A stretch of 64,000 nucleotides of DNA from Mobula hypostoma (Eukaryota), in assembly GCF_963921235.1 (NCBI RefSeq), contig NC_086108.1, positions 67,520,001 through 67,584,000 on the forward strand. The letters are read 5' to 3'. A program made the position numbers and the translations under genes. Positions 29 through 62,987 of the stretch are shown piece by piece (the first letter of the stretch is position 1; every line of letters starts with the position of its first letter). A model generated the notes under the pieces. The model made no database searches and was not told the DNA's origin. It worked only from the letters and a program-made list of their open reading frames with translations.

Positions 29-1335
29 AGTTGTGGTTCATCCATCGTCGTCGATGAAGACCTCAACACCATTAGTCACATTGAGACTGGATGCGGTGTG
101 TCCAAAGATGACTGGTCAGGCCAATTCAGGCACGGAATGTCCTGGCACATGTTGGGCAGACATGTGTAGGTACTGCAGTTTTTGCGCAGGTGGCTCTGGA
201 CTTGCGCAGTTTGTGCTTATGTTGTGCTTCAGCAATGCGCCTTGCTTCGAAAGCTTGACAGGCCTTGTGGATGAGGCCACGCCAGGTAGGGCCGTTTTGT
301 GCCAGCATTTCCCAAGAGGTCATGTCTATGTCAAATGACTTCAGGGAGGCCTTTAGTGGGTCTTTGTAACATTTCTTCTGTCCTCCATGCGAGCATCTCC
401 AAGCAGAGAGTTCCCCAAAAAGGAGCTGCTTGGGTAGGCACTCATCCGACATGCGGATGACATGATCTGCCCACCGGGTCTGTGCTCTCATCAGCAGTGT
501 GTATGTGGACTGATGGCAGACTTGCTCTAGAGGGGAGTTCAGTGTCTGATACTTTACTTTGCCATCTGATGCCTAATATTCTGCAAAGACAAGTCATGTG
601 GAAATGGTGAGCTGTCTTGCATGTCTTCCATACACAGTCCACATTTCACAGGCATACAGGAGGGTAGTGAGTACCACAGCTCTGTAGACCTTCAGTTTTG
701 TTGCTGCACTGATTCCACAGCCTTCCCATACAGTGGAGCGCAGTCTACCGAAAGCAGAACTTGCCTTTGCTATTCTGCAGTTAATTTCTGTATCAATAGT
801 CACTGCTCAGGAGAGGGTGCTGCCAAGGTAAGTAAACTGGTCCACTGCCTGTAGTTTCTGTCCTTTGATTGTTATTTTGAGTTCTGTGTATGGTGCATGA
901 GGAGCAGGCTGGTGCATGACTTTGGTCTTTTTGATGTTGATGGTGAGTCCAAAGTTGTCACAAGCCGTGGAGAATTTGTCCATATTGACTTGCATCCCTG
1001 GCTCCGAGCCAGCATACAGGGCACAGTCATTGGCAAAGAGTAAGTCTCTCAGAACAGTCTCCTTCACTTTGGTAATAGCTTGAAGTCTCCTCAGGTTGAA
1101 GAGCTTCCTATCCACTCTGTTCTTGAGGCTGATTCCAGCATCACTGTCCTGGAAGGCATTATTCAGCATGGCAGTAAACATCATGCTGAACAGTGTGGGT
1201 GTGAGCACACAGCCCTGTTTGACACTATTGGTGACTGGGAATGCCTCAGAGGATTCTCCGCCATCCAGCACTCTGGCCATCATGGAACTGGCGTACCATC
1301 TAAATGAATTTGGCAGGGCAGCCGAACTTTGACAT
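29..1335 (-). mobile_element. RTE/BovB-clade LINE, 5'-truncated and frameshifted (RT C-terminal half plus 3' end)
   Basis: Minus-strand ORFs 807-1283 (VKQGCVLTPTLF...DLLFANDCAL, a degenerate FADD), 594-803 (RIAKASSAFGRL...TKLKVYRAVVLTTLLYACE) and 126-491 (RLPKQLL-like PKQLLFGEL, CPTCARTF) match RTE ORF2. The 3' end is near position 30. Confidence 0.85.
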
Positions 1336-2399
1336 GATCCTTCGGAGGTCTTGACTATTAATAAACTCCATTTTTGTTAATGCTACAAAATGTGTTTGTG
1401 TCCTGAATTTGGGTCCACCTGTGCTCCGCACTTGTGACAGAACGGTCTAGCCAAACATGGACCCAGCAGAGACAACCTCTGTTTTCTAAACTCTCGTTAG
1501 CCAGAATCCCTTACTGGAATCCCACCCAGAGCGCAACTTATAGAATTCAAGAAAGTGACTCAAAGTTCCCAGGTATCAGTTTAGGAAAAATTGTGTAATT
1601 ACAGCAACAGTCACAAAAGGTCAATGTGCTGTTAGCCCGTTTTCCCCACTGGCCAAAACCCCCTCCACCCACCCGGGTCATCGATAATGCGGGCAAATCC
1701 GTTAGTTCGCCTGGAGGCTCCCATTGAGGGCAGGGTTACTGTCACAGTCCCGATCGGTTATTCCCTGGTTCCCTTTAAGTTACCCTTGTGTCACAATCAT
1801 GACAATTGACTCCTTTTTTCCTTTATTTCATTGTTTCTCCGTATTTCTTGGGCTCTGTAATTAAAGGCACTTGATTCTCAGCTGAACGGTCAATGTATAG
1901 TGTCAGGCTTACAACTGCTTGGCGCTAGACCATCACCTCACGTCACCAAAGCAAGTGCGAGCAAGTCACCTTGCCGGAGTGAGACAAGTTACATCACCGG
2001 AGCAAATCTAGTCTCCTCTCCAAAGCGAGGGCCAGTAAGTCGCCTCTCCTCGCCGGAGCGAGCCCGTCAAGTTACCGCGCCTGAGCGACCCTGCTACGCT
2101 AACTCACCGGTGCGGGTCTGTCAAGTTAACCTGTCGGAGTGAGTCAAGAGCCGCTGCCGGTAGTTCTGGGGCCAAGTCGAGAGCTCGCCGCTACTTGGAG
2201 CCACTTCACGCCAAGATAAAGAACTGTCTATCGTTGTGTGGTTTTGTCTCTTGGTATGCTCACCTCCGCTGGGCAGGTCTGGGCGTTTGCCACTACCATG
2301 AGTTGGAAACTGTCTCTTTGTGTCCTCGCCTCTGCTGGGTAGGTCTGGCTGTTTGCCGCTGCCCTGAGTGGAGAACTGTCTCTTCCTGGTCTGTGTTCT

Positions 2400-17843: not shown

Positions 17844-20650
17844 CGTAACGCGCTGTAAGGTTTCACTGCTAATCTAATGTTTTTTTTGTAATGTTCACTG
17901 CTGAAGTAACAGTTTCTCTGTAGCAGCAATGTTTGAGGTAAGGACGGACAACAACCGCCTAACTTATATCCTGACCTCAGTGAAACTGGATGCCACAGAC
18001 CATCTGTGATCGGCAGCGTTGTCTGCCTATGATTTCAGACTGAAGTACTGGCTGGGGAGCCGGAACGTTGATGCGAATGCTTTGTTCCGACGGGTGCATG
18101 AGGGACTGGACATGGACGAGGAGTGGGAGAGCGTTCCTGCCCCTGGGGTGAAAGCCATGTGTCAGTTTGCCATCACCATGAAGGCAGAGGAAAAGGAAAG
18201 GCCAGATCAAGCAGTGGATCAATTGGGGGCTTCTGATGATGCCATACCCCAAGTTTACTGTAACCTGACAGCTCTGAAGACAAATCCGTTGCCAGAATTG
18301 AGCTCTGGGGAAGTGGCAGCTGCTCAGCGAGATGATCCGGGCATTGGCACTATTTGGTCTGCGGTTGAAAGGGGAGACATGGCTCAGGCAGAGAAGATGA
18401 AACGTGTTTCGGTGCCTCCATTACTGAAAGAATGGCCTTGGTTGGAGCTGAAGAACCAGATCTTATACTGGGACATGTCACCCCCGGACCAACCTCGGCG
18501 ATGCCAGCTAGTTCTGCCCGAGAAGTATCAGAGGATTGTGTTGAAGTCACTTCATAATGGTTCTGGATATTTGGGGATGGAAAAAACCTATGGATTGCTC
18601 AGAGACCAGTTTTACTGGCCCCGAATGAAGTTGGGAGGTTGAGGAATACTGCAAGTCATGCATTCGCTGCATACAGCGGAAGACACTGCCTACGCGAGTA
18701 GCTCCCTTGTCCCATTTGCAGAGTGCGGGGCCTCTGGACCTGGTGTGTATGGATTTCCTGTCCATAAAGCCAGAGCCAGCAACATGGCGAATGTCTTAGT
18801 CATCACGGACCACTACACCAGATATGCTCAGGCTTTTCCTACCAAGGACCAGAGGGCGACTACAGTGGTAAAAGTGTTATGGGAGAAGTATTTTGTTTAT
18901 TATGGCCTTCCCAGGCGGATACATAGTGACCAGGGACAGGATTTTGAGATCAGACTCGTCTATGAGTTACTGGGCATGCTTGAAGTCGAGGACCACACCC
19001 TATCACCCGCAGGGCGATCCCCAACCTGAGAGGTTTAATTGGACCTTGCTAGACATGCTTGGGACCCTGGAGATCAGCAAGAAGAGCAGGTGGAGTCAAC
19101 ATATTGGGCATCTGGTTCACAGTTACAACTGTACGTGAAATGAAGCTACTGGGTACTCGCCATATTATCTGATGTTTGGGTGCGAGGCGAGGTTGCCCTT
19201 TGACCTTTGCTTTGGGATTGACGAGGGTGACTTACCACCGAAGCCTTATTTGAAGTATGTGTCTGATATGAGGGGAGAGCTGAAAGGGGCTTATGAATTG
19301 GCTGGGGTCGCAGCCACCAAGCAGAATCGAGGAAATAAGAGGAAGTATGATCAAAAAGTGAGGTTCTCCCAACTCCTGCCAGGAGACCGAGTCCTCATAA
19401 GGAACTTGGGGATACCTGGAATGCACAAGTTGGCTGACTGCTGGGCGGCCACACCCTAAGTGGTGGAGCGTCAGGTGCCAAACCTACCAGTTTTCCGGGT
19501 GAAACCAGAGGAGGGGAATGGTCCTGTCAAGATACTCCACCGGATCCACCTGTTGCCCCTGGGACGAGAGGTACAGGTAGACCCAGAGCCCGACTTGGAG
19601 CCTACACCTAGTAAGAGGACTCTGCGAAAATGTGGGGCGACTGCAGGGCCCACAGCAGGAGAAGCTGGGCTGGGCCCCGTCCATGAGAGGGATACTGATT
19701 CGGAGGATGATGATCTGGATGTGTGGTACATGCTGCTGTTCGCTAACTCCCCATTGACTGAGGCAGAGACTCCTGGCCCTTCTTCCACTGAGTCAGGTGA
19801 AGTGGAGGGGTGCTATCTGTGGGCAGCCTGGGTTACAGCAGGACCCTGAAGGAGAGAAAGCGGTGCCTGGACACGGGATAGGGGGCTCCGAGTGGCAGGG
19901 GGACATGAGTGATAGATCGGGAGGGAGGACTCGCCAAGTAGACCCGAAGAATCTACAGTCGCGTCTGAGCCTGAAGAGTTGGGTGAGGAGGTATGGAGGT
20001 CTCAGAGAATTAGGAGACCACCGGATAGGTTGGCTTATGTGGCGACTGGGGAACAGGGCGTGATCCCTACTGTTTTGGGGAGCTAGGTCACTGCCTTTTG
20101 CACCTGGATTGGGCTTTGTGTTTTGCAGGAAGGGTTGGCGAACTATCTCAATGTCATGAGGACATGACTAAATTTGGTTGGGGGAGAGTGTAATGCGCTG
20201 TAAGGGTTCACTGCTAATGTAATGGTTTGTTTCTAATGTTCACTGCTGAAGTAACAGTTTCTCTGTAGCAGCAATGTTTGGGTTGTGGCTGGAAATAACA
20301 GGATTATGGATGCTTGTTAGCCAATCAGGATTTTGTTGCCCTGTCTGGTGAATCTGGAAGCAGTTGATTTTGCGGGCTTTTGCCAGAGAGAGAGAGAGAG
20401 AGAGAGAGATGAACAAGAGGTGAATGGAGAGAGTTGGTAGACCGCCGGACAGGGTCTCTACTAACTACATTGTCAAAGGAAGAGTTAAAAAGCTTAATTG
20501 TTTAATTGCATATTGTGTACTGTTATTTTGGGGTACTGATTTGTTACGGGACACATCGCGCAGCATCCACCCAAACGAGAGTTCTTAAGTTTGGCCGGGC
20601 AGGGAGTTATCACCCCCTATATTAAGCTACTAGGCGAAGCGAGTGTTACA
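17844..20650 (+). mobile_element. Deleted Gypsy LTR retrotransposon (RNaseH end plus integrase, partial 5' LTR, 3' LTR) in MRPL55 intron 1
   Basis: The LTR start (C/T)GTAA(C/T)GCGCTGTAAGG occurs at 17844 and 20189. PPT GGGGGAGAG precedes 20189 and the LTR ends GTTACA at 20650. Frameshifted pol motifs: [54 protein letters not shown]. Confidence 0.9.
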
Positions 20651-21411: not shown

Positions 21412-24400
21412 TGTTACATACCTCATGGGTATCTTGTGACTGTCTTATGACCATGAGGTAATTGAGTAACTTGTGAGCATGATGTAATGGTCTTATGATG
21501 GTGGGGTGATTTAATTTTCCCGCCAGTGTGAGGTCACGTGATGACATGTTCCCAATAGGTGTTAAGGGAAACCCTGTTGTGACGCAGCTAGTTTTCAGTT
21601 TAGTTCGTCAGTTACTCCGTTATGCTGCGTACTCTGGACCACATCTGGACCCGACCAGCGAGGCCCACCACGTTCCGGGAGACCTGCGGTCTGCTACTGT
21701 GCCGGAGCGCTTGGAGACACGGCCCATTCCGACCAGCACCTCTCCGGAGCAGACGACCACACAGAAGAGACGGCGGAGACCTCAAGGTGCCCCAGACACT
21801 TCCCCGGAGCGACCACCGTAAAGCCCTGTTGGTGGCCATCCAGTTGCCGGAAGTGAGGCCTCCGCCGCCAACCTCGGAAATTGAGCCCAAGGCTCGGCTG
21901 GAGCGGAGGCCTCCATAACCATGACTCGACTTACGGACTTGTTTCAGCCAGGAGCCCAGCCATCCGGGATTAAGTGTTGGCTTTGGCGCCCAACCCAATC
22001 GACAGCCTGGGCCCCCGGCAGCTGGAAATGGCAGCGGAGCCTCCCCTGTTACTTGGCCCGACCCGGAGCGCACGATGAGGCAACCGGCCAATTGATTCCC
22101 GCGGGACGCATCCACCAACATCAAAGAGCTGACAACAACACACTGCATCGATGGAGTTCTGGATAGATGCACTACTTACCGAGGAAGCGTGGGAAAAGAG
22201 CTGGGCTGCTGGTCAGATTGAAGCTGAGGGGCTTCAGGGTCCCTATGCCCACCATCCTACTAGCTAATATGCAAGCCATAGAGAACAAGGTGGATGATCT
22301 TAAAGGGAGACTCACCTACTGCAGGGAGATGCAGAACTGCTGTGTATTCTGTTTCACCGAGACCTGGCTCTCCCCTGCCACCCCTGACTGTGCCGTCCGA
22401 CTGGAGGGATTTTCGATCCATCGGATGGACAGCACGGTGGTGTCTGCCTACTGATCAACACTGGGTGGTGCTCTGACACAGTGGGACTGACAAGCTCCTG
22501 CAGCCTGGACCTGGAACACCTGTCAGTAAAATGTCATCCCTACTATCCGCCATGGGAATTCACCTCGGTCATACTGACAGCGGTCTACATTCCCCCCAGG
22601 CAAACGTGAAGTGTGCTCTGAACCTACTGTATGCCAGCATCAGTGAACTTGAGACCAGGTATCCGGAGGTTTTGCTCATTACAGCCAGGGACTTTAACCA
22701 GGCCAACCTCAGAAAGGCGCTGCCGAAGTTATACCAACATGTCTCCTGCCCCACTAGAGGCCCGAATATACTTGACCACTGCTACACAGCAGTCAAGGAT
22801 GCCTACCGTTCCGTCCCACGACCTCACTTCAGAAAATCGGACCATCAAACCGTACTCCTCCCGGCTTACAAACAGAAACTGAAGCGGGAGGTCACGGTGT
22901 CAAAAGTAGTGTCGCGTTGGAGGAGGAAACGGATGAGGTCCTCTGTGACTGCTTTGAATCGGTGGACTGGTTAGTATTCAAGGACTCGGCAGCTAACCTC
23001 GATGGGTATGCCTCAGCTGTCACGGACTTTATTTGGAAATGCACGAAGGACTGTGTGTCTCGCAAGACGATCCGGGTATTCACTGACCAGAAACCTTGGA
23101 TGAATTATGAGGTCAAGTCCCTTTTTAAGGCTGGAGCTGCAGCTTTTAGGTCTGGGGATACCAGTCGTTACATAGAATCCAGGCGTGAACTCCGGAAAGC
23201 CATTAAGGGCGCCAAGATGCAATATCGAGCCAAGTTGGAAGCCCAGGCTAACCAAAGGGATGCTAGTAGACTATAGCAGGGTCTAAATGAGATCACTGGG
23301 CGCAAAGAAAAGGCTGGGAATGTCAATAACCGTGGCGCTTCTCTTCCTGACGAACTTAACATATTCTATGCGGGATTCGATCAGAAGTGGAGCGTCCCGC
23401 TCCCTCCGGATGAACCGGACCTGGTGGCATCGAGATTCATCGTCACTGAGGAGGACGTTAGAAGGGTCTTCCTGAAGATAAATCCAAGGAAGGCAACGGG
23501 CCCAGATGGCGTCCCAGGACGGGTTCTCTGGGCCTGTGCAAGCGGCTAGCTGGAGTGTTTGCTGACATCTTCAGCTGCTCCTTGCTTCAGTCTAAGATCC
23601 CCTCGTGTTTTAAGAAGGCAACGATAATCCCAGTGCCGAAGAAGAGCAAGGTGGCATGCCTGAATGACTATCGACCTGTGGCTCTGACATCAATTGCTAT
23701 GAAGTGCTTCGAAAGATTGGTTATGGTACACATCAACCACAGCCTACCGGTCAACCTCGATGCTTTGCAATTCGCATACCGGAGCAACAGGTCAATGGCA
23801 GATGCCATCTCTCTGGACCTACATTCCTCCTTAGAACACCAGGAGAATAAAGACGCATACGTAAGGCTCCTTTTCATTGACTACAGCTCTGCCTTTAATA
23901 CCATCATTCCAAATAAATGGATTCCTAAGCTCCAGAACCTGGGCCTTAGCACTCAGATCTGCAGCTGGATCTTCAACTTCCTCACAGACAGGACCCAGGC
24001 TGTAAAAATAGGGGACAGGCTCTCCTCTACAATCACTCTGAGCACCGGTGCCCCACGAGGCTGTGTACTCAGCCCCCTGCTGTACTCACTGTACACCCAT
24101 GAATGTGTAGCCAAGTTTCCATCAAACTCGATATATAAGTTTGCTGATGACACAACAATTGTAGGCCATATCTCGGGTAATGATGAGTTTGAGTACAGAG
24201 AGGAAATTAAGAACCTGGTGTCATGGTGCGAAGACAATAACCTATCCCTCAACGTCAGTAAGACGAAAGAATTGGTTGTTCACTTCAGAAGGAGTAGCGG
24301 ACCACACGACCCAATTTACATCGGTGGTGCACAAGTGGAACAGGTCAAAAGCTTTAAGTTCCTCGGGGTCAATATCACAAATGACCTGACTTGGTCCAAA

Positions 24401-25714
24401 CAAGCAGAGTTCACTGCCAAGAAGGCCCACCAGCGCCTTTACTTCCTGAGAAAACTAAAGAAATTTGGCCTGTCCCCTAAAACCCTCACGAATTTTTATA
24501 GATGCACCGTAGAAAGCATTCTTCTTGGGTGCATCACGACCGGGTATGGAAGTCCAAGACGGAAAGAAGCTGCAGAAGATTGTGAACACGGTGCAGCACA
24601 TCACACAAACCAATCTTCCGTCTGTGGACTCACTTTACACCGCACGCTGTCGGAGCAGTGCTGCCAGGATAATCAAGGACACGACCCACCCAGCCAACAC
24701 ACTTTTCATCCCTCTTCCCTCCGGGAGAAGGTTCAGGAGCTTGAAGACTCGTACGGCCAGATTTGGGAACAGCTTCTTTCCAACTGTGATAAGACTGCTA
24801 AACAGATCCTGACCCGGATCTGGGCCGTACCCTCCAAATATCCGGACCTGCCTCTCAGTTTTTTTGCACTACCTTACTTCCTATTTTTCTATTTTCTATT
24901 TATGATTTATAATTTAAATTTTTAATATTTACTAATTTTAACTATTTTTAATATTTAATATTTGTAATCCAGGGAGTGTGAAGCGCAGAATCAAATATCG
25001 CTGTGATGATTGTACGTTCTAGTACCAATTGTTTGGCGACAATAAAGTATAAAGTATTCGTCTCATGGCGCAGTTTCGTTTTAAAGTGGAGTTCTACTTT
25101 CTATTGTAAGGTAAAATCATTGTGCCAGCAGTTTCACCAGTTGCTGCCAGCTTTGGTGTATCTTTGATTTACCTTTACAGTAGTATTGGAAAGTGAAGAC
25201 CTTACTAAAGTACGGGAATTTGAAGGATCGAATGAAGTTTGAGTCGTTTGGCGGTTTTATAAAGGATCGACCTTATTGAGTCTTTGTTCAGAAATAGTGA
25301 CCTGTATCTGAGATAACTCCTGCAAGAACAGGGAAGTTTGTGCAGTGTTCACTTGCCAGAAAAAGGTCAGTTCCTTTAAGCCATTTTATTTCCTTCATCG
25401 TGAGTCCTTTGGAGAATCAGCAGTAACGTCACGTCTTTGAAGAAATCCGTTTCCAGAGAAGTCTCTCCTTATTGACTGTGTAAGTCACTTGGACTTTCGA
25501 ATTTACCATTTTAAGACTGCGTTCAAATTTACCACTTTAAGAATTGTTTTCAAGTTTACCCTTTTAAGAACTGTTCCAGAGTTGCCGTATAGCAGTTAAC
25601 TTCCGGTTAAGTTAGTTGTTTGAATACTTTTCTCTATTGTTGAGCAGAGTTTAATAAATGTTTGTTTATAAAACTTGACTCAATTCTACATACATTGTTG
25701 TTGATGCCGTAACA
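21412..25714 (+). mobile_element. Solo LTR with a 4-bp target-site duplication, interrupted by a LINE
   Basis: TGTTAC (21412) to GTAACA (25714) termini, flanked on both sides by AAGT (21408-21411 and 25715-25718). AATAAA lies near the 3' end. Confidence 0.8.
21610..25056 (+). mobile_element. Near full-length Rex1/Babar-like LINE (endonuclease plus RT), with a few frameshifts, stops and deletions
   Basis: EN motifs ILLANMQAIENK, FCFTETWL, DFNQANL, TRGPNILDHCY, SDH. RT motifs [38 protein letters not shown]. Tail AATAAAGTATAAAGTA. The 5' boundary is uncertain by ~20 nt. Confidence 0.9.
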
Positions 25715-37455: not shown

Positions 37456-38709
37456 GTAGGTTTGGTTGATAGATTTACAAAATGCACACAAAATTGAATT
37501 CATAAACAACATATACTTTTAAATTAATCTATCATCCATTGTATTCTTGATCTTAGTTCAAAATCTATTCATCGAAATTTCAATTTAAATTTTAAATCAA
37601 TTGCTCTTTCTAAACATTAGCGGCTACAAAATAAAATCAACAAATCTTACAGTAATAAATCTTTGAATTTATTCATCACTGCACCCTTGTCATGATATAA
37701 TGTTTATTTGAATGTGAATTAATTACTCTATTGGAAGGACAATATTTTCACCTAGTACGGTGTTACTTGCATTGAAGAATGTGCAAACAAATCAAAATGG
37801 GATTAGAATGTCTTTACCTTGATTTTCTTGTAGGTCCTAGTACAAAATCCATGGAAAATAACAAAAATAATTATTTCAACCTAATATTCAAAGTACAGCT
37901 TATATATAAAAACATTTTGTTAATACACAAATGCTCATTCAAGCTTATTTAAATGACATATATTCAGTGGCCACTTTATTAGGTACAGCAAGCATCTGTG
38001 TCCAAGTGTAAATATGATGGATGCCACATTTAAAGTAGAAACCTGTAGTTTACTAATTGCTGACAGCTTGGAGTTCTGCTTTGGATAATCCCACCTCTGA
38101 GAAAACAGGCCGGAAGATAAAATATATTTTAAAATAATCAAGGGGTTTTATAGGATGAATAGTGTGCTGTATAATATGGGACTACTTTATGTTATAGGGA
38201 CAAGTTGTTGCATGCGCTATTAGGCACGTATTGATCTGTACGTGTGTGTTCAGTTCGGTTTCAGTCAGTAAAGAGCCCTGTTAACTTAGCTCCTCTCTCC
38301 AGCGTTTTTATTTATAGCTTTGTTGTGTAACCCGGCCACTTACACAACAAATTGGCGACGAGGTTAATGAACCTACATCATATCGGAGCGTCGTGTTTTA
38401 ATTGTTAATGACACTCAAAGAAGAGCACAAGGTAGGAGCCAAGGTAGAGCGAGGCTGCAAGTCCGAAACAAAGTGGGAGCACAGCTGGGGTCGGGAACGT
38501 CGGGAGACCAAGAGACACAGTTGGAACCGCAGCATGTCCAGGCGAGACAACAGCCAGCGCTGAACCCCAGGGACTGAGGGTCTGCCTGCCCCAGAAGGGA
38601 GATAAAAAGAAGCGACACACACAATAGATGGAGTGCACTCGTGGCGCTAGCAAAAAGGTGACCTGAGTCAAAAAAAAAGGGAGAACAGGGCTAAATTAAC
38701 ATAACAAAG

Positions 38710-39885
38710 ATGGCGATGATTGGAACCATTACAGCATTTGATAGTAGCATTGAAGACTGGGCAACTTACATTGAAAGAGTGGAGTTACGTTGTGAGGCTA
38801 ATGGTGTTATTGATGAAAAGAAAGACAGTGTTTTACTCAGTATTATGGGAGCAAAAACATACGGCCTGCTACGGTGCTTGTTAACCCCTGAGAAGGCAGC
38901 TGACAAAACGTTCAAGCAAATAGTAGACACTCTCCAACAGCATTTAAGCTCCAAACCATGGGTCATGGCTGAAAGATTTAAATTTCACAATCAGAATCAG
39001 AGCAAAAATGAAAGCATTTCTGAATATTGTGCAAATTATCAGAATATTGTCAATTTGGAGTGGGTCTATCGGATGCATTGAGGGACAGGTTAGTGTGTGG
39101 CATGCACTGTGAAACCACACAGAAGAACAGAAGAAGCTCCTGTGTGAAAAAGACCTTACATTCGAGAAAGTGCCAAACACCTCAATATAAACTGAAACAG
39201 TGGCACGGGGTGCTTCCGAGATACAACGAAAATCTCTGGAATATGCCACAAATAAAATGTCACTGAACAGAAATGAAGGAAAGAAATGTTACCATTGTGG
39301 GAACATGTCATATGACCCTGATGACTGTTGGTTTAAAGACAAAGAATGCAGAAACTGTGGCAAACAGGGCCACATTGGCAGAGTATGCAAAGCCAGTAAA
39401 TAGCAGAAAAAGGACAAAATACAGAGAGAGAAGAAACCCCAGAAAGGAAAGCACAACAATGTACACAAAATGGAAGAAAGCAGTTCTGATGAAAATGACT
39501 CAGACAAAAATGAATTGTCTTGTCTGCAACTTCACAGCGTGAAAGAGGCAGATGATTGAAGAGTAATAAGGATCACTCCACAAGTGGCAGGTGTGAGACT
39601 GAAAATAGAGTTGGACACAGGCTTAGCTTTAACAATGATCTCTGTACATGACTACAAACGACTATTTTTTCACATACCTCTGAAATGAACTAAACTACTG
39701 CTAAAGACTTACACAGGACAGAAAGAGCGTCACAAAGGTAAAATTAAAGTGACAGTGACCTACGGAGACAAAACACAGCAGCTGAACCTCTATGTACTGG
39801 AAAATGGAGGGCCACCATTGTTGGGACGTGAATGGCTCAGGAAAATCCACTGGGATTGGCACACCATCAAGGCACTAGTTGTGTC
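38710..39885 (+). pseudogene. Decayed Gypsy gag-protease
   Basis: EDWATYIERVE...LLSIMG, ALRDRLVCG, CYHCG...C and [29 protein letters not shown], with frameshifts and in-frame stops at 39401, 39557 and 39686. Confidence 0.85.
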
Positions 39886-39913
39886 AGCAAAGGAGGGCAG
39901 CTCGGCGGGGAAG

Positions 39914-40573
39914 ATGTCCGCAGCTCTCCTCTCACCTATTGTCAACTATTACAATGACAAGGAGGAGCTAGACAGCATCGACAATGAGGACGAACACAGT
40001 ATCTGTGGCCGTGACTCAGATGAAGAGGATGCAAGGGAGACAGATATTGCCAATAAGCAGGATGATGAAGACTATCTGGAAGTAAAAGAGCAGATGTACC
40101 AGGAGAAATTGACATCTCTCAAAAGGCAGCTACAGCAGTTACAGGAAGGCAGTTTGCAGGAGTATCAGAAAGGGATGAAGAAACTAGATCAACAATACAA
40201 GGAAAGAATACGAAATGCAGAGCTTTTTCTGCAACTGGAGACAAAACAAGTGGAAAGGAAATATATTAAAAAGAAGAAAGCAGCAGTGAAGGAATTTGAA
40301 GATAAAAAGATTGAGTTAGAAGAAAGAAAAAATGATTGAGAATGAGAGGCTAACAATGGAACTCACAGGAGATTCTTTGGAGGTAAAGCCAATAATGACC
40401 AGGAAACTAAGGAGGAGACCTAATGACCCTGTTCCAATTACAGACAAAAGACGAAAACCTGCACCTGCACAGCTAAATTAACAGATGAACAGATAAAGGA
40501 AGATCTGTGAACTCTAAATAAGCTTAAATCTCTGAAAAGACCAGCATCTCTGTCTTCTCCTGAACAATTTCCT
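39914..40573 (+). pseudogene. SUDS3: Processed (intronless) partial copy of SUDS3, a Sin3-HDAC complex subunit
   Basis: MSAALLSP...[60 protein letters not shown]...[13 protein letters not shown]. After a frameshift it continues [49 protein letters not shown]...TDEQIKEDL*TLNKLKSLKRPASLSSPEQFP. There are no introns. Confidence 0.92.
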
Positions 40574-41374
40574 TGGGAAAGATCCATGAAAATTGAGCAT
40601 CCTTTAAAAACTCTTGGACAGAATCAATTCCATTCAAACAGAACAGCTTTCGCACAAGGTAAATCTTGAACCAATCATTTCCTCTATTGAGAATCATACA
40701 CTTAATCCTTTGCAGGGAAGTTTCTTTTGCACATACATAGTTTGAATCCTCAGCCTATGTGTCTTGTTTTGCTCAAAGAAGTTGGGAAACAGCATCAAAA
40801 CAGAGGCCAATTCTGGCAACAAATTGTAAGGTTTCTATTGTATTTTCACACTTGTGCTGAATGTGCATCTGAAGGAATTCTCCCTTTTGAGCCAGGTAAG
40901 CAATCTTTTCTTGCACTGTGCACAACTGGGATTTTTCATACATAGAATCCTCCAAACAATTCAGAAACAGTGCATAGAATTCAGTCTCATTTTCTTGACC
41001 ACGATTTGTTTTTTGAACTTCAGACAGATAGCACTGCAGGTAATCCTTAATATCAGCGAAACTGTACTTTAGCAGCAGCTTAAGAATAACGGAACGAACA
41101 ACAGGATTTCGATCAACTGCTTCATCAAACAGCGAAAGATTACTAGCAAAGTGCTGAACTTTCTGTGAGTCATTGGATTGCCTCGACTTTTAAATAACGA
41201 GCAGAGACAGCAGATCACCAACCACTTCTTTTTTGGTGGCAAGTCATTTTTGAAGCAGACCATGGAAACCAAAGCTACAAAAAATATATCACACCTCTTG
41301 CGAAATATAGCTAATTTTGCTACAGCTTCACTTATTTCTTCTGTTACTGCCGGTACATAATCATCATCTGGAGA
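40557..41374 (-). pseudogene. RNF213: Processed (intronless) internal fragment of RNF213 (mysterin), the region just C-terminal to the RING
   Basis: Manual minus-strand translation: PDDDYVPAVTEEISEAVAKLAIFRKRCDIFFVALVSMVCFKNDLPPK/EVVGDLLSLL...FDEAVDRNPVVRSVILKLLLKYSFADIKDYLQCYL...TEFYALFLNCLEDSMYEK...TIETLQFVARIGLCFD...NDWFKIYLVRKL...WIFPKEIV. This matches recalled RNF213 motifs (TPVIRSVILKLLLKYSF, LFINCLEDS, NDWHRVYLVRKL, WVFPKDVV). One frameshift and three stops. Confidence 0.88.
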
Positions 41375-43364
41375 AGTACCGCACCGTGGGCAGAGTCCTC
41401 CCCCAGAGACTTGCGTTATAAATGGGTCTTAGACCAATCATAAAAAAAAGGCTTGTTATAATTTTATATTATTATGTTACTTTGTTATAATTTGATATTA
41501 TTAAGTTACTAAGTAAACAATTGGTAGGCATTTGTATGTTAAAGGTAAACATATTTGTTTAGCGTAGTGCCCCAGTAAAAAAAAGTTGATAGACTATTAA
41601 AATACAAGTGGAGGAGTGTACTGTATAATATGGGACAACTTTATGTTGTAGGGACATGTTGTTGCATGCGCTAATAGGCGCGTATTGATCTGTACGTGTG
41701 TGCTCAGTTCAGTTTCGGTCAGTAAAGATCCCTGTTAACTTAGCTCCCGTCTCCAGCGTTTTTATTTATAGCTTTGTTGTGTAACCCGGCCACATACACA
41801 GCAAGTATGAACAGCCATATTTTACTTCTTTATTCTGACAAAAATTGCTTTAAATTGTGTGTTAAACATGGAAATGCCAATTAATGAGGAACCAGTTTAG
41901 GTTTCAATAGGTACATTTAATGCCAGAGAAATGTATACAATATATATCCTGAAATTCTTTTTTTTTGTAAACATCCACGAAAACAGAGAAGTGCCCCAAA
42001 GAATGAATGACAGTTAAAGGTTAGAACCCAAACCCCCCCTCTCGCAGCTCCCCCTCCCACACACAAGCATCAGCAAGGCAATGACCCCACCACCCCCACC
42101 AGCAAAAAAGCATCAGCGCCCTCCACCGAGCACTCAAGCCTGCAGCAAAGCATCAATAAACACACAGGCTTGCAGTATCCCGATGACTACTCATTCACCT
42201 GTTAATTTGACATACCGCAGGCTCTCTCTCTCCCTAATAAGGGAAAAAGAGGTTTCCCCGTTTCACAGCGAGAGGGGAGACATTACAAACAACGCTCCGA
42301 TTTACGATGTTAAAAGTTTGTTGCGTCGCCTTTTCTGAACTCTGCTCCATACAGTCGGCCCCAGAAAGGCTCAGATCTCTGGGCACACAACCCACAGCAG
42401 CTAACCCGCTGCTCTCGGTGTTCTGTATTCTCTCGCGACGCCTCAGTCATGGGCTCCTGCCTAGAATCAGCATGTCTCCAGAGCCACAAAAAAGCAACGT
42501 GTCCTTATGATGGAAAAGCTACAGAGCAGCAAAAGCAAGTCAGGATAATCGGACAGTATCAAACCAACACAGGACTACCCGTACGCAGAATCAACAGACC
42601 CAGACATATTTTTTGTCTTGTTAGATGTATCACGGTGTCTCAGCTTTATTGCTGAGCTCTTTATTGCCACAGCTTAATCTACAGGCAACTATTGCTATGA
42701 GATACAAAATGACCCATCAGCTGACTAATTTTAGGTACCCTCATATTTTCCATATCAGTCAATTTGCTTCGCATTAGTCTGCAATGCTGTCTTTACTGAG
42801 ATATCTCAATATATTCCACACTGGTGACTCAGAAGTGTCAATGGTTTTTAGAATTTTTTGATACAATAGTATCACACCCACGTTATAGTGAGTGCCACAA
42901 TGCTACTATTCGACAGCAGACTTCAAAAAGAAGCATTCTGCTCCAAAATTTGTCATGGAAAGTGATTACAGTATTAGGTGGACAAAGGATGGGGTTCAAG
43001 GATATGCTCAAAGTCTCCTTGAAGATTTTCAACTACCCCACTAAATCCTGGAAATATCTCTCAAAGTGAAAAAAGCACCTTGGGTGGCTTTGAGAACCTC
43101 GGGGTTATACATTGGAAGCATAGAAAAATCCCGCATACACACAGACTATCCACACCTGTCCTGATGAACATCACCTAATCTTCCTGTATTAGTCTCATTT
43201 GCCATACTCCTAAAATTCTACATGAAGTCACATTGGCTGTTTGACAACTGAAAAACAATAAGCCCTAGGGGTCACTTGGTATTTCTGCTGAAGCCCTAAA
43301 TCGTGGTTGAGAAGAATTTCGGTCGCAATAAACAACCTTATCTTCCTCGTGTGGGAAGAGGAAA

Positions 43365-55276: not shown

Positions 55277-57850
55277 AAGAACATAAGAACATAAGAAATA
55301 AGAGCAGGAGTAGGCCATCTGGCCCATTGAGCCTGCTCCGCCATTCAGTAAGGTTATGGCTAATTTGACCATGGACTCATCTCCACCTATCTGTCTTTTC
55401 TCCATAACCTTTAGTCATAGTCATAGTCATACTTCATTGATCCCAGGGGAAATTGGTTTTTGTTACAGTTGCACCATAAATAATAAATAGTAATAGAACC
55501 ATAAATAGTTATATAGTAATATGTAAATTATGCCAGTAAATTATGAAATAAGTCCAGGACCAGCCTATTGGCTCAGGGTGTCTGACCCTCCAAGGGAGGA
55601 GTTGTGAAGTTTGATGGCCACAGGCAGGAATGACTTCCTATGACGCTCTGTGTTGCATCTCGGTGGAATGAGTCTCTGGCTGAATGTACTCCTGTGCCCA
55701 ACCAGTACATTATGTAGTGGATGGGAGACATTGACCAAGATGGCACACAACTTGGACAGCATCCTCTTTTCAGACACCACCGTGAGAGAGTCCAGTTCCA
55801 TCCCCACAACATCACTGGCCTTACAAATGAGTTTGTTGATTCTGTTGGTGTCTGCTACCCTCAGCCTGCTGCCCCAGCACACAACAGCAAACAGGATAAC
55901 ACTGGCCACCACAGACTCGTAGGACATCCTCAGCATCGTCCGGCAGATGTTAAAGGACCTCAGTCTCCTCAGGAAATAGAGACGGCTCTGTCCCTTCTTG
56001 TAGACAGCCTCAGTGTTCTTTGACCAGTCCAGTTTATTGTCAATTCGTATCCCCAGGTATTTGTAATCCTCCACCATGTCCACACTGACCCCCTGGATGG
56101 AAACAGGGGTCACCGGTACCTTAGCTCTCCCCAGGTCTACCAGCAGCTCCTTAGTCTTTTTCACATTAAGCTGCAGATAATTCTGCTCATACTGTGCAAC
56201 AAAGTTTCCTACCGTAGCCCTGTACTCAGCCTCATCTCCCTTGCTGATGCATCCAACTATGGCAGAGTCATCCGAAAACTTCTGAAGATGTCAAGACTCT
56301 GTGCAGTAGTTGAAGTCCGTGGTGTAAATGGTGAAGAGAAAGGGAGACAAGACAGTCCCCTGTGGAGCCCCAGTGCTGCTGATCACTCTGTCAGACACAC
56401 AGTGTTGCAAGCACACGTACTGTGGTCTGCCAGTCAGGCAATCAAGAATCCATGACACCAGGGAAGCATCCACCTGCATTGCTGTCAGCTTCTCCCCCAG
56501 CACAGCAGGGCGGATGGTGTTGAACGCACTGGAGAAGTCAAAAACCATGTCCCTCATAGTGCTGGCTGGCTTGTCCAGGTGGGCGTAGACACGGTTCAGA
56601 AGGTAGACGATAGCATCCTCAACTCCTAGTCGGGGCTGGTAGGCGAACTGGAGGGGATCTAAGTGTGGCCTGACCATAGGCCGGAGCAGCTCCAGAACAA
56701 GTCTCTCCAGGGTCTTCATGATGTGGGAGGTCAATGCCACCGGTCTGTAGTCATTGAGGCCGCTGGGGCGCGGCGTCTTCGGCACAGGGACGAGGCAGGA
56801 TGTCTTCCACAGAACAGGAACCCTCCGGAGCCTCAGGCTCAGGTTGAATACATGGCGAAGTACTCCACATAGCTGAGGGGCACAGGCTTTGAGCACCCTG
56901 GTACTGACACTATCCGGTCCTGCAGCCTTGCTTGGGTTGAGACGTTTCAACTGTCTTCTCACCTGTTCAGCTGTGAAGCCCACCATGGTAGTTTCGTGTG
57001 GGGAAGGAGTATAGTCATGAGAGCAGGGTGGGGGACTGTGAGGAGGGGTAGGAGGGGAGGGTGGAATATGTGTTGGTTGGGGGCCGACAACAGATGGCTC
57101 GTGTGGGGGATGGGCAGGGGCCACAATGTCAAATCTGTTAAAGAACAGGTTAACTTCATTGGCCCTGTCCACACTGCCTTCAGCTCCTCTGTTGCTAGTT
57201 TGCCGGAACCCAGTGATGGTCCTCATCCCCCTCCAGACCTCTCTCATGTTGTTCTGCTGGAGTTTCCACTCAAGCTTCCTCCTGTACCTGTCTTTAGCCT
57301 CCCTGATCCTGGCTTTCAGGTCCCTCTGTATTGCCCTCAGCTCCTCCCTATTTCCATCTCTAAACGCCCTCTTTAATTCCCTTAATTCCCCTACTAAGCA
57401 AAAATCTATCCGGCCTTGTTTGAAATATATTTACTGGGGTAGCCTCCACTGCTTAATTGGGCAGAGAATTCCACAGGTTCACCATTCTCTGGGAAAAGGA
57501 GTTCCTCCTCAACTCCATCCTAAATCTAATCCCCAGAATCTTGAGGTTATGTCCCTTAGTTGTAGTTTCTCATATCAGTGGTAACAACTTTCCTGATTCT
57601 ATCTTATCTATCCCTTCCATAATTGTATATGTTTCTATAAGATCTCCTCTCATTCTTCTGAATTCCAGCAAGTACAGTCCCAGGCGATTCAATTTGTCCT
57701 CATAGTCTAACATCCTCATCCTTGGAATCAACCTGGTGAACCGCCTCTACACCACCTCCAAAGCCAGTATAAACTTCCTCAAGACCAAAACTGCAAACAG
57801 TGCTCCAGGTGTGGCCTCACCAGTACCCTGTACAGTTGCAGCATAACCCC
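55277..57850 (-). mobile_element. CR1 3' fragment (55277-55412 plus ~57374-57850) split by a Rex1-like LINE
   Basis: An (AAGAACAT)n tail is at 55277; the CR1 sequence resumes TTAATTCCCCTACT at ~57380. Confidence 0.75.
55413..57373 (-). mobile_element. Rex1/Babar LINE, 5'-truncated, young-looking RT
   Basis: ORFs 56291-57247 ([38 protein letters not shown]) and 55565-56164 (KGQSRLYFLRRLRSF); (TAGTCA)n tail. Confidence 0.9.
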
Positions 57851-61266: not shown

Positions 61267-62987
61267 TTGAGGTCCTAGCTCATCTGCCTTCTCCGTCATA
61301 AGTTCAGTTACTGAACCTGCCGGATTCGCGGTTGGCCCTCGCCCTTCCAGGTGCTACCGTTCCAGGTCAGAGTGGCTCTGGAAGCAATGAATGACTAAGG
61401 GGTAATTCCACTTTTTCCAGAGCTCTGAAAGTCCCCAGTCAGAGCCTCATCACCGGTTGCAGTTTAGCAGTCCAGAAATTAAGAAGGTCCAAGTATTTTA
61501 AAATCTGAAGTTCGTAATGCAATAAATAAGATGAAGAAATGAAAGGCAGCAGGTCCTGATGAATTAGTAATAGAACAAATTATCGCCCTTGAAGATTATG
61601 GAATTGAAAAACTTACTGATTTAATCAATGACATTCATGAGACTGGAATAATACCAGAAGAGATGAGAAAATCAGTATTTAAAACTCTTCCTAAGAAACC
61701 TGGAGCAATGGAATGTGAAGGACCAGAAGTTTAATGATACTTCTAAGAGTTTTGATGACGAGCTAAAAGTAAGATACAAGCTGAGATAGGTAAAGAACAA
61801 CGTGGTTTTGTGCAAGACAAAAGTACAAGAAACACAATATTGATGTTAGGGATACTATCAGAACTAGCTATTCAGGCGCAAAAAGATTTGTTTATTTGTT
61901 TTATTGACTACACAAAAGCATTTGATAAAGTGAAGCACAATAATTTATTTGAAATATTACAGGAAACTCTAGATCTAGATTCGAAAGACCTCTGCCTAAT
62001 CAGAAATCTGTATTGGGAACAAACTGCCGCTTTAAGAATAGACGGAGAAGTGAGTCAGTTTATGAAAATCAAGACAGGCATTAGACAAGGGTGTGTTTTC
62101 TCCTCTGGTTTGTTTAATGTGTACAGTGAAACAATATCACAAAAAATAAGAGACATCTTAGGAATCAAAGTTGGCAGTGAAAACAGCAATAATTCTAGAT
62201 ATGCAGATAACTGTGTTAATTGCAAGTATGGAGGAAGAACTAAAAAGTTAATTGATATAGTTGTTGAAGAAAGTGCAAAAATTGGTCTATCTATCAATTG
62301 CAAAAAGACAGAATGTATGGTGATATCAAAAAGAAGGAGAATCCTATCTCAGGCTGAGAATAAACAGGGAAGACATAGAACAAGTACAGAACTTTTACTA
62401 CTAAGGAAGCTGGGTGACATCAGATGGCAGGTGCGACTTGGACATCAAAAGAAGAATAGGGATGGCAAAAGACACCTTTACAAGAATGAAGAGTATACTG
62501 ACCAACACTAAACTAGGCATGACAACCTACCTCAGAGCACTGGAATGTTGTGTTTATCCAGTTATGTTATATGGCTCAGAGTGTTAGACAATATCTAGTA
62601 ACATGAGGAAACCAATTGAAGCAGCAGAGATGTGTTTTTTGAGGAGGATGCAAAGAATATCATGGACAAAATGAATATCTAATGAGGATGTCATGAACAG
62701 AGCAAGCACAAAAAGAGAAATAATGTATGAGATCATGAAAAGGCAACGTGACTTCATTGGACATGTGATTAGGAAAGAGGAATTAGAATGCATGGTAACT
62801 ATGGGAAAGACTGAAGGGAAGAGAGCAAGAGGAAGGCAAAGACAAATGATGATGGAGACAGCAGCCAGAGAATGGGAAGTGAATACCAATGAATTGATCC
62901 ACTTGACCTGAAACAGGAGTGTGTGGGCCATGGCAGTCAAAGCTCAAACTGGGCACGGCACCTGATGATGATGATGATGATAATAAT
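61267..62987 (+). mobile_element. RTE/BovB-clade LINE with an inverted 5' segment
   Basis: The forward RT/3' part (~61480-62987) has FIDYTKAFDKV, GIRQGCVFS, RYAD, EGKRARGRQR and a (TGA)n tail. Positions 61267-61345 are the reverse complement of the RTE 5'UTR at ~6815-6893. Confidence 0.85.

Follow-up and report, generated by a model that had tools for sequence, protein, structure and literature searches.

The stretch of DNA analysed here, hereafter the window, comprises 64,000 nucleotides (nt) from the ray Mobula hypostoma (NCBI RefSeq assembly GCF_963921235.1, contig NC_086108.1, positions 67,520,001 to 67,584,000 of the forward strand), and it holds a non-autonomous Ty3/Gypsy long terminal repeat (LTR) retrotransposon in which 2,702 nt of pol, measured between the corresponding positions of the pol-bearing copy L058, are replaced by pieces of two host messenger RNAs (mRNAs), SUDS3 in sense and RNF213 in antisense. 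A preliminary description, made from the letters of this DNA, had already outlined an element with two LTRs, a primer binding site (PBS), gag, protease, the two cargo pieces and a polypurine tract. The outline holds: the LTRs are mismatched at 14 of 187 sites, Pfam matches and alignments place the remaining parts (Table 1), and both cargo identities are borne out by Pfam, PDB and host-exon matches. Gag and protease align with residues 1-404 of a gag-pol relative encoded by a single open reading frame (ORF), and a search across the window for anything past residue 404 found nothing, in agreement with the proposed loss of reverse transcriptase (RT), RNase H and integrase. Two CCHC-type knuckles lie near 39287-39390, the second recognised by Pfam (zf-CCHC, E=4.4e-5) and the first, which is decayed, by eye. 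The pol remnant read earlier as EKYRTVGRVLPQRLAL* (about 41371-41421) survives in part: only about 41398-41421 is pol, and the rest is antisense RNF213, whose host exon reaches 41397. Frameshifts and stops in gag-protease, together with the LTR mismatches, agree with the description of an old, decayed copy. The PBS-like motif also stands 3′ of the 5′ LTR in copies L009, L019 and L056, and no tRNA gene was found in the 64-kb window.

Table 1. Features of the window copy (38163..41803) in window coordinates, with the three cargo junctions.
Feature	Position	Strand	Remarks
Left flank AATAG	38158..38162		candidate degraded 5-bp target site duplication (TSD); right flank AGTAT at 41804-41808
5′ LTR	38163..38349	+	187 bp, TG...CA ends
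PBS-like TGGCGACGAGG	38353..38363	+	putative PBS from its sequence
gag	38710..39560	+	frameshifts near 39030-39125, plus stops
Aspartic protease (ELDTG) and linker	39561..39901	+	stops inside; ends where pol is lost
J1 (pol / SUDS3 5′ untranslated region, UTR)	39895..39901	+	GGGCAGC common to both sources
SUDS3 spliced mRNA	39895..40563	+	sense; Pfam, PDB, host-exon alignment
J3 (SUDS3 / antisense RNF213)	40557..40563	+	CTCCTGA common to both sources
RNF213 spliced mRNA fragment	40557..41397	-	six exons, antisense to element; PDB and host exons
J4 (antisense RNF213 / pol 3′ end)	41389..41395	+	GGCAGAG common to both sources
True pol C-terminal remnant PQRLAL*	41398..41421	+	compare PQRLEL* in pol-bearing L058, PKRLDL in P0138
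Polypurine tract	41606..41616	+	adjoins 3′ LTR
3′ LTR	41617..41803	+	187 bp, TG...CA ends

The SUDS3 cargo is recognised by Pfam (Sds3, 8.9e-9) and PDB (4zqa, 9.2e-25), and its nearest proteins are those of rays, at 89%. In the window copy it consists of 19 nt of 5′ UTR, exons 1-9 and the start of exon 10; the ATG at 39914 is in frame with the protease, an arrangement kept through J1 in all nine copies read, and private frameshifts lie near 40326 and 40477. The preliminary description had held that the inserts derive from spliced mRNA, and both host genes were located, with their introns missing from the cargo. Host SUDS3 spreads 12 exons over 59 kb, which when joined give one open frame, and copy L020 joins all 12 with the 3′ UTR, its introns gone. 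One of the introns removed has AT-AC ends; in the host gene this kind of terminus is found at intron 7 (G000:C78:8398854-8395736), with AT...AC ends and a ATATCCTT donor, features typical of the minor spliceosome. A 24-nt in-frame deletion near 40311 is present in 28 of 30 copies, the other two having no coverage of the site, and the 3.48-Gb genome has a single occurrence of the motif without the deletion, in the host gene. Because the deletion is common to all covering copies, the SUDS3 cargo goes back to a single founder. The same 8-residue deletion is present in six proteins, from two Mobula species, that databases name "SDS3-like" (of 120 proteins checked, seven lacked KE[NS]L[IV], P0099 among them by substitution only), so that at least six such entries are probably translated element copies, as judged from their sequence. 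The majority form of the cargo copies carries full-length SUDS3 and no RNF213; in L014, L017 and L020 SUDS3 runs past the stop codon into the UTR for about 340 nt, again without RNF213.

The antisense insert matches RNF213 in PDB (9jwg, 7.3e-12) and in a skate protein. It joins without introns six exons that are spread over 17 kb in the host gene, at 88-96% DNA identity, and covers the end of the RING finger and the following E3 region. J3 coincides with the exact 3′ end of an RNF213 exon. To the left of J3 the similarity carries on into the exon that follows in the spliced mRNA (exact for 8 nt, and at 11 of 12 positions if one gap is allowed) but does not enter the intron. The insert is internal to the mRNA, so its 3′ end is not included, and no poly(A) was found at either insert of the window copy. 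The exon just 3′ of the insert has one genome match, in the host gene, and a free-standing processed RNF213 copy was found neither by that match nor by two protein-level genome searches. The cargo differs from its host gene by 7.8%, against about 5% for SUDS3. Twenty-five differences are near-fixed (10 synonymous, 15 non-synonymous), with a ratio of about 0.41 against about 0.78-0.79 for private changes, and the residual per-copy divergence of 4.8% is near that of SUDS3. Two related sequences lie on the contig of host RNF213: a degenerate 74% duplicate of an exon within an intron of the gene (G000:C68:48834131-48834226), and a second, more distant RNF213-like gene at C68:41.29 Mb.

The suggestion that such elements may form a family is amply confirmed. 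Copies were counted by genome pattern searches with up to 3 mismatches, which give lower bounds and for which reversed-pattern controls returned 0; candidate totals of 630, 402, 1184, 347 and 2397 are overestimates and do not serve here as copy numbers. J1 has 304 genomic matches and J3 has 55; a second RNF213 layout is represented by 35 matches to its far junction. SUDS3 continues beyond J3 in 260 matches, among which the host gene and copies of the second layout may be counted. Pol itself continues at the J1 site in 203 matches, and in these we recognise the pol-bearing parent family, probably the helper Gypsy that had been sought, of which the examined copies are broken. Sampled protease matches (n=19) run into SUDS3 in ten cases and into RT in nine. 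Pol-type copies have protease, RNase H, RT and integrase domains, all broken, and L056, L057 and L058 show the order gag, protease, RT, RNase H, integrase at a backbone distance of 7-10%.

Seven more RNF213 loci reveal the variety of the cargo. Five (L079, L080, L083, L084 and L085) have the second layout, in which antisense RNF213 reaches two exons further upstream, joins eight host exons, contains an internal deletion and interrupts SUDS3, so that 10 nt of SUDS3 (mRNA positions 729-738) are repeated on both sides of RNF213; SUDS3 then exits from its 3′ UTR to the pol end at one of two points, mRNA positions 1134 and 1363. The other two loci have J3, but their insert is longer and passes to the pol end at another point. 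Each RNF213 layout has RNF213 sequence missing from the other, and of the 18 near-fixed differences from the host that could be compared, 16 are common to the two. Mosaic copies, namely L007 (antisense RNF213, SUDS3 3′ UTR and pol-type end) and L041 (pol-type front and SUDS3-type end), support frequent recombination.

A few copies carry further peculiarities. L013 (with L065 and L071; G000:C50:14925395-14925900) has about 500 nt of sense, intron-free RPS8 coding sequence, seen in this single copy, which stands in place of the PBS, the terminal part of the 5′ LTR and some of the leader; GAAGAG is common to both sequences where RPS8 meets the leader. The LTR ends are both retained, the TSD matches at 4 of 5 positions, and a short inverted U5 piece lies at the left join. 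L051 (G000:C21:61044380-61044880) and L053 (C1:10759620-10760120) exit SUDS3 early into one common sequence reading ERAQE..P.QTGLS.NHL, possibly another cargo or a repeat. In L005, L006, L011 and L018 the 5′ LTR was pushed upstream by later insertions, the inserted ends of L005 and L006 being alike.

At each of J1, J3 and J4 the two sources share 7 nt, which random joins of the same sequences reach in 0.06% of cases. The junctions also occur in sequence data from other organisms: contigs from four of these, in four studies, cover all 30 bins and represent family copies rather than the window locus. Contigs of X2 and X13 bridge J1 and one of X13 bridges J3; none of the pieces listed bridges J4. 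X1, which may be RNA, has an exact 191-nt match that we do not count as evidence of expression, and no RNA source is among those listed.

Divergence within nine LTR pairs ranges from 5.5 to 9.0% (mean 7.5%), and an exact 5-bp TSD flanks L009 and L056, with 4 of 5 positions matching in L008, L013 and L019. In a tree of 20 backbones (L015, L016 and L019 were dropped from 23 for low coverage), the pol, SUDS3 and RNF213 forms lie 7-10% apart in a star-like arrangement; therefore all forms spread in one period, and the copies stem from one old burst followed by decay. We give no calendar age, as about 4% decay per copy at the rate of 7e-10 per generation reported for the epaulette shark (PMC10587355) would imply an implausible span of about 57 million generations. 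For private changes, which look neutral, the ratio of non-synonymous to synonymous, without correction for transition bias, is 0.62 for SUDS3 and 0.78 for antisense RNF213. Shared SUDS3 changes (10 non-synonymous, 8 synonymous) lean synonymous, and the comparison of shared with private changes gives no significant sign of selection on the SUDS3 cargo (Fisher p=0.18).

Around and within the element some other features were seen. An imperfect inverted repeat, potentially folding into a hairpin, makes up the U5 end of each LTR (38320-38351 and 41773-41804). A very high-copy repeat, with contig depth far above that of the element, starts about 90 bp past the 3′ LTR (window 41890-42300). By eye, frames resembling the RT of long interspersed nuclear elements (LINEs) lie at window 807-1376, 23462-24925, 55565-57430 and 61759-62511, and an unrelated Gypsy-type integrase region at 18010-18642.

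Taken together, the window copy is with high probability a dead member of a non-autonomous Gypsy family that was built stepwise, by SUDS3 capture, mobilisation in trans, entry of RNF213, trimming and passive decay. The captures were sequential: since RNF213-bearing copies retain J1 and the 24-nt deletion, full-length SUDS3 came first and RNF213 later, and the window copy is a derived form. The starting point is the pol-bearing parent family with its common backbone. From there RT very probably switched onto SUDS3 mRNA and back, ousting RT, RNase H and integrase; the product is the whole spliced SUDS3 coding sequence with UTR pieces, in a single founder mobilised in trans to about 300 copies. 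Both the LTR-mediated capture of mRNA and the argument against LINE-type retroposition, as put forward in the preliminary description, stand for SUDS3, whose cargo ends within the 3′ UTR and has neither poly(A) nor a TSD of its own. For RNF213 they need revision: the second layout has a 10-nt duplication, the two mRNAs did not enter together, and the ordinary minus-strand switch is insufficient because a spliced antisense insert would need an antisense spliced RNA.

We therefore consider it probable that the 3′ end of plus-sense DNA within SUDS3 paired at J3 with sense RNF213 mRNA, and that at least 1.2 kb of RNF213 was copied to give a spliced antisense insert. The setting may have been plus-strand synthesis in the particle, which we adopt tentatively; a chromosomal copy extended by LINE RT or break repair would be a rather unlikely but serious second setting, and the 10-nt duplication of the second layout is compatible with both. 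The simplest reading of the layouts is one longer RNF213 ancestor of at least 1.2 kb, later trimmed; microhomology switches among co-packaged family RNAs would have cut the insert into its layouts, and the cargo would then have been carried passively while copies decayed after the burst.

Several observations weigh against this reconstruction. Microhomology does not exceed 3 nt where the SUDS3 3′ UTR joins pol in L014, L017 and L020, and is 3 nt at either RNF213 junction of the second layout, a length that chance yields in 6% of cases. The TSD of the window copy matches at 3 of 5 positions (AATAG and AGTAT), that of L004, L006, L011 and L018 is absent or unclear, and the 5′ LTR of L014, L017 and L020 was not found within about 1.9 kb upstream. 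The longer RNF213 ancestor was not found either: a comparison by eye of the 55 J3 sites with the 40 far-junction sites listed, out of 46 candidates, gave no adjacent pair. Finally, only 2 of the 17 inner branches of the backbone tree have good support, and it is the structure of the copies, not this poorly resolved tree, from which the sequence of events is read.

The alternative that survives best concerns the entry of RNF213, which on the chromosomal account inserted into a resident, transcribed SUDS3 element through LINE-type internal priming or RNA-templated break repair and was spread later by the LTR machinery. We regard this as unlikely overall, and yet it accommodates much: the insert is antisense, the second layout interrupts SUDS3 with positions 729-738 on both sides, the J3 pairing suits priming by the 3′ end of a target, and several LINE-like RT frames exist elsewhere in the window. 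Both layouts combined imply a duplication of 15-22 nt, and LINE insertions typically have duplications of this length. A template switch with backward re-entry yields the same duplication, however, and the combined RNF213 ancestor on which the figure depends was inferred and not seen. The insert also lacks poly(A), and no RNF213 sequence 3′ of J3 occurs outside the host gene.

A further possibility is that RNF213 was acquired by a normal minus-strand switch from the antisense transcript of an older processed pseudogene, since lost or unassembled. The standard mechanism would then suffice, and the greater distance of RNF213 from its host gene, with its near-fixed differences, speaks for it. We find this improbable, as none of the three genome searches found a free-standing processed copy, the low near-fixed ratio (about 0.41, against 0.79 for private changes) suits change in the host gene, and the residual divergence is close to that of SUDS3.

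It is also doubtful that the SUDS3 cargo was selected, in the sense that a Gag-protease-SUDS3 polyprotein freed a near-complete SUDS3, short of 8 coiled-coil residues, which aided spread, for example by blunting Sin3/HDAC silencing. The constant frame with the protease, the complete coding sequence in the majority form and the frame-keeping founder deletion are in its favour, as are the excess of cargo copies (304) over pol copies (203) and the synonymous lean of the shared changes. That lean is insignificant, though, two frame-keeping events arise by chance in one case in nine, and forms truncating or splitting SUDS3 still reached at least 55 and at least 35 copies; moreover, shorter non-autonomous elements are often more numerous than their helpers. 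The combination of such cargo-driven spread, an altered Sin3/HDAC subunit acting against silencing, with a second mRNA copied during plus-strand synthesis is more doubtful still; if true, it would be a host-derived counter-defence on an animal LTR element together with the fossil of a rarely documented switch. An assembly chimera, or independent LINE retrocopies landing singly in resident elements, is favoured only by the weak TSD of the window copy and has practically no chance of being correct, refuted as it is by identical junctions at 304 and 55 dispersed loci, the bridging contigs of other organisms and the common 24-nt deletion.

Template switching onto co-packaged mRNA is an established route to LTR-mediated retrocopies (Tan et al., 2016, Genome Res 26:1663, PMC5131818), and the SUDS3 part is such a retrocopy by the criteria given there. 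As in the cases of the main text of that study, a spliced host mRNA replaces the internal ORF between LTR pieces, microsimilarity marks the switch points (median 6 bp there, 7 nt at the three junctions of the window copy), and multi-gene chimeras undergo further rounds as non-autonomous elements. Unlike them, the ray family numbers about 300 copies, more than its helper, with a complete coding sequence, and is old and shared across organisms; the second mRNA it took in was spliced yet lies in antisense, and in one layout breaks into an otherwise continuous element and is flanked by a duplication, an arrangement that the study states was not observed in Drosophila. The words "orientation", "opposite" and "inverted" are absent from its main text, and its supplements may list antisense cases. 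The mechanism is thus already known; what is unusual is how many copies the family has and that it holds a spliced antisense insert. Two systems discussed in the same text come close. Maize Bs1 likewise joins exonic pieces of several host genes with switch points common to all copies, but has 1-5 copies and a reported functional hybrid gene, whereas the ray family has hundreds of copies and those examined are all decayed. The HERV-K capture of FAM8A1 also involves a vertebrate LTR element, a processed mRNA and microsimilarity, on a retroviral backbone and with one parental gene, while here a Gypsy backbone carries SUDS3, RNF213 and, in one copy, RPS8.

With respect to the backbone, the best five matches to gag-protease are fish single-ORF gag-pol proteins annotated "K02A2.6-like" (about 1,310 residues), at 55-59% identity. 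They share a similar C-terminus and two CCHC arrays, the latter also readable in the translations of L056-L058, and differ from the window copy in having RT, RNase H and integrase. Two arrays are reported for the Mag clade and also for Micropia/Mdg3 (PMC2577118) and are not diagnostic. The nucleocapsid type makes the Mag clade a candidate placement, and we do not file the family as a member.

SUDS3 has recently been listed as one of the five genes with most retrocopies in cartilaginous fishes. The preprint (bioRxiv 10.64898/2026.06.26.734816) relates the abundance of retrocopies to non-LTR elements and to selective filtering, and its main text contains no occurrence of "Gypsy", "RNF213" or "Mobula". 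In the ray genome the SUDS3 excess is instead one capture amplified by an LTR family, which offers another and simpler explanation there; SLU7, another top parent of that preprint, is not amplified in this genome (5 matches, one locus). We found no description of a SUDS3/RNF213 Gypsy family in the open-access literature, judged by titles and listings.

One capture followed by LTR amplification can make hundreds of retrocopies of a single gene, and rankings of retrocopied genes therefore need not mirror LINE activity, expression or selection. The antisense RNF213 insert, with its spliced-mRNA pairing at the priming end, is a natural record bearing on how RT copies host mRNA from a plus-strand DNA end, and the dispersed insertions with their 5-bp TSDs are usable as markers of ray phylogeny.

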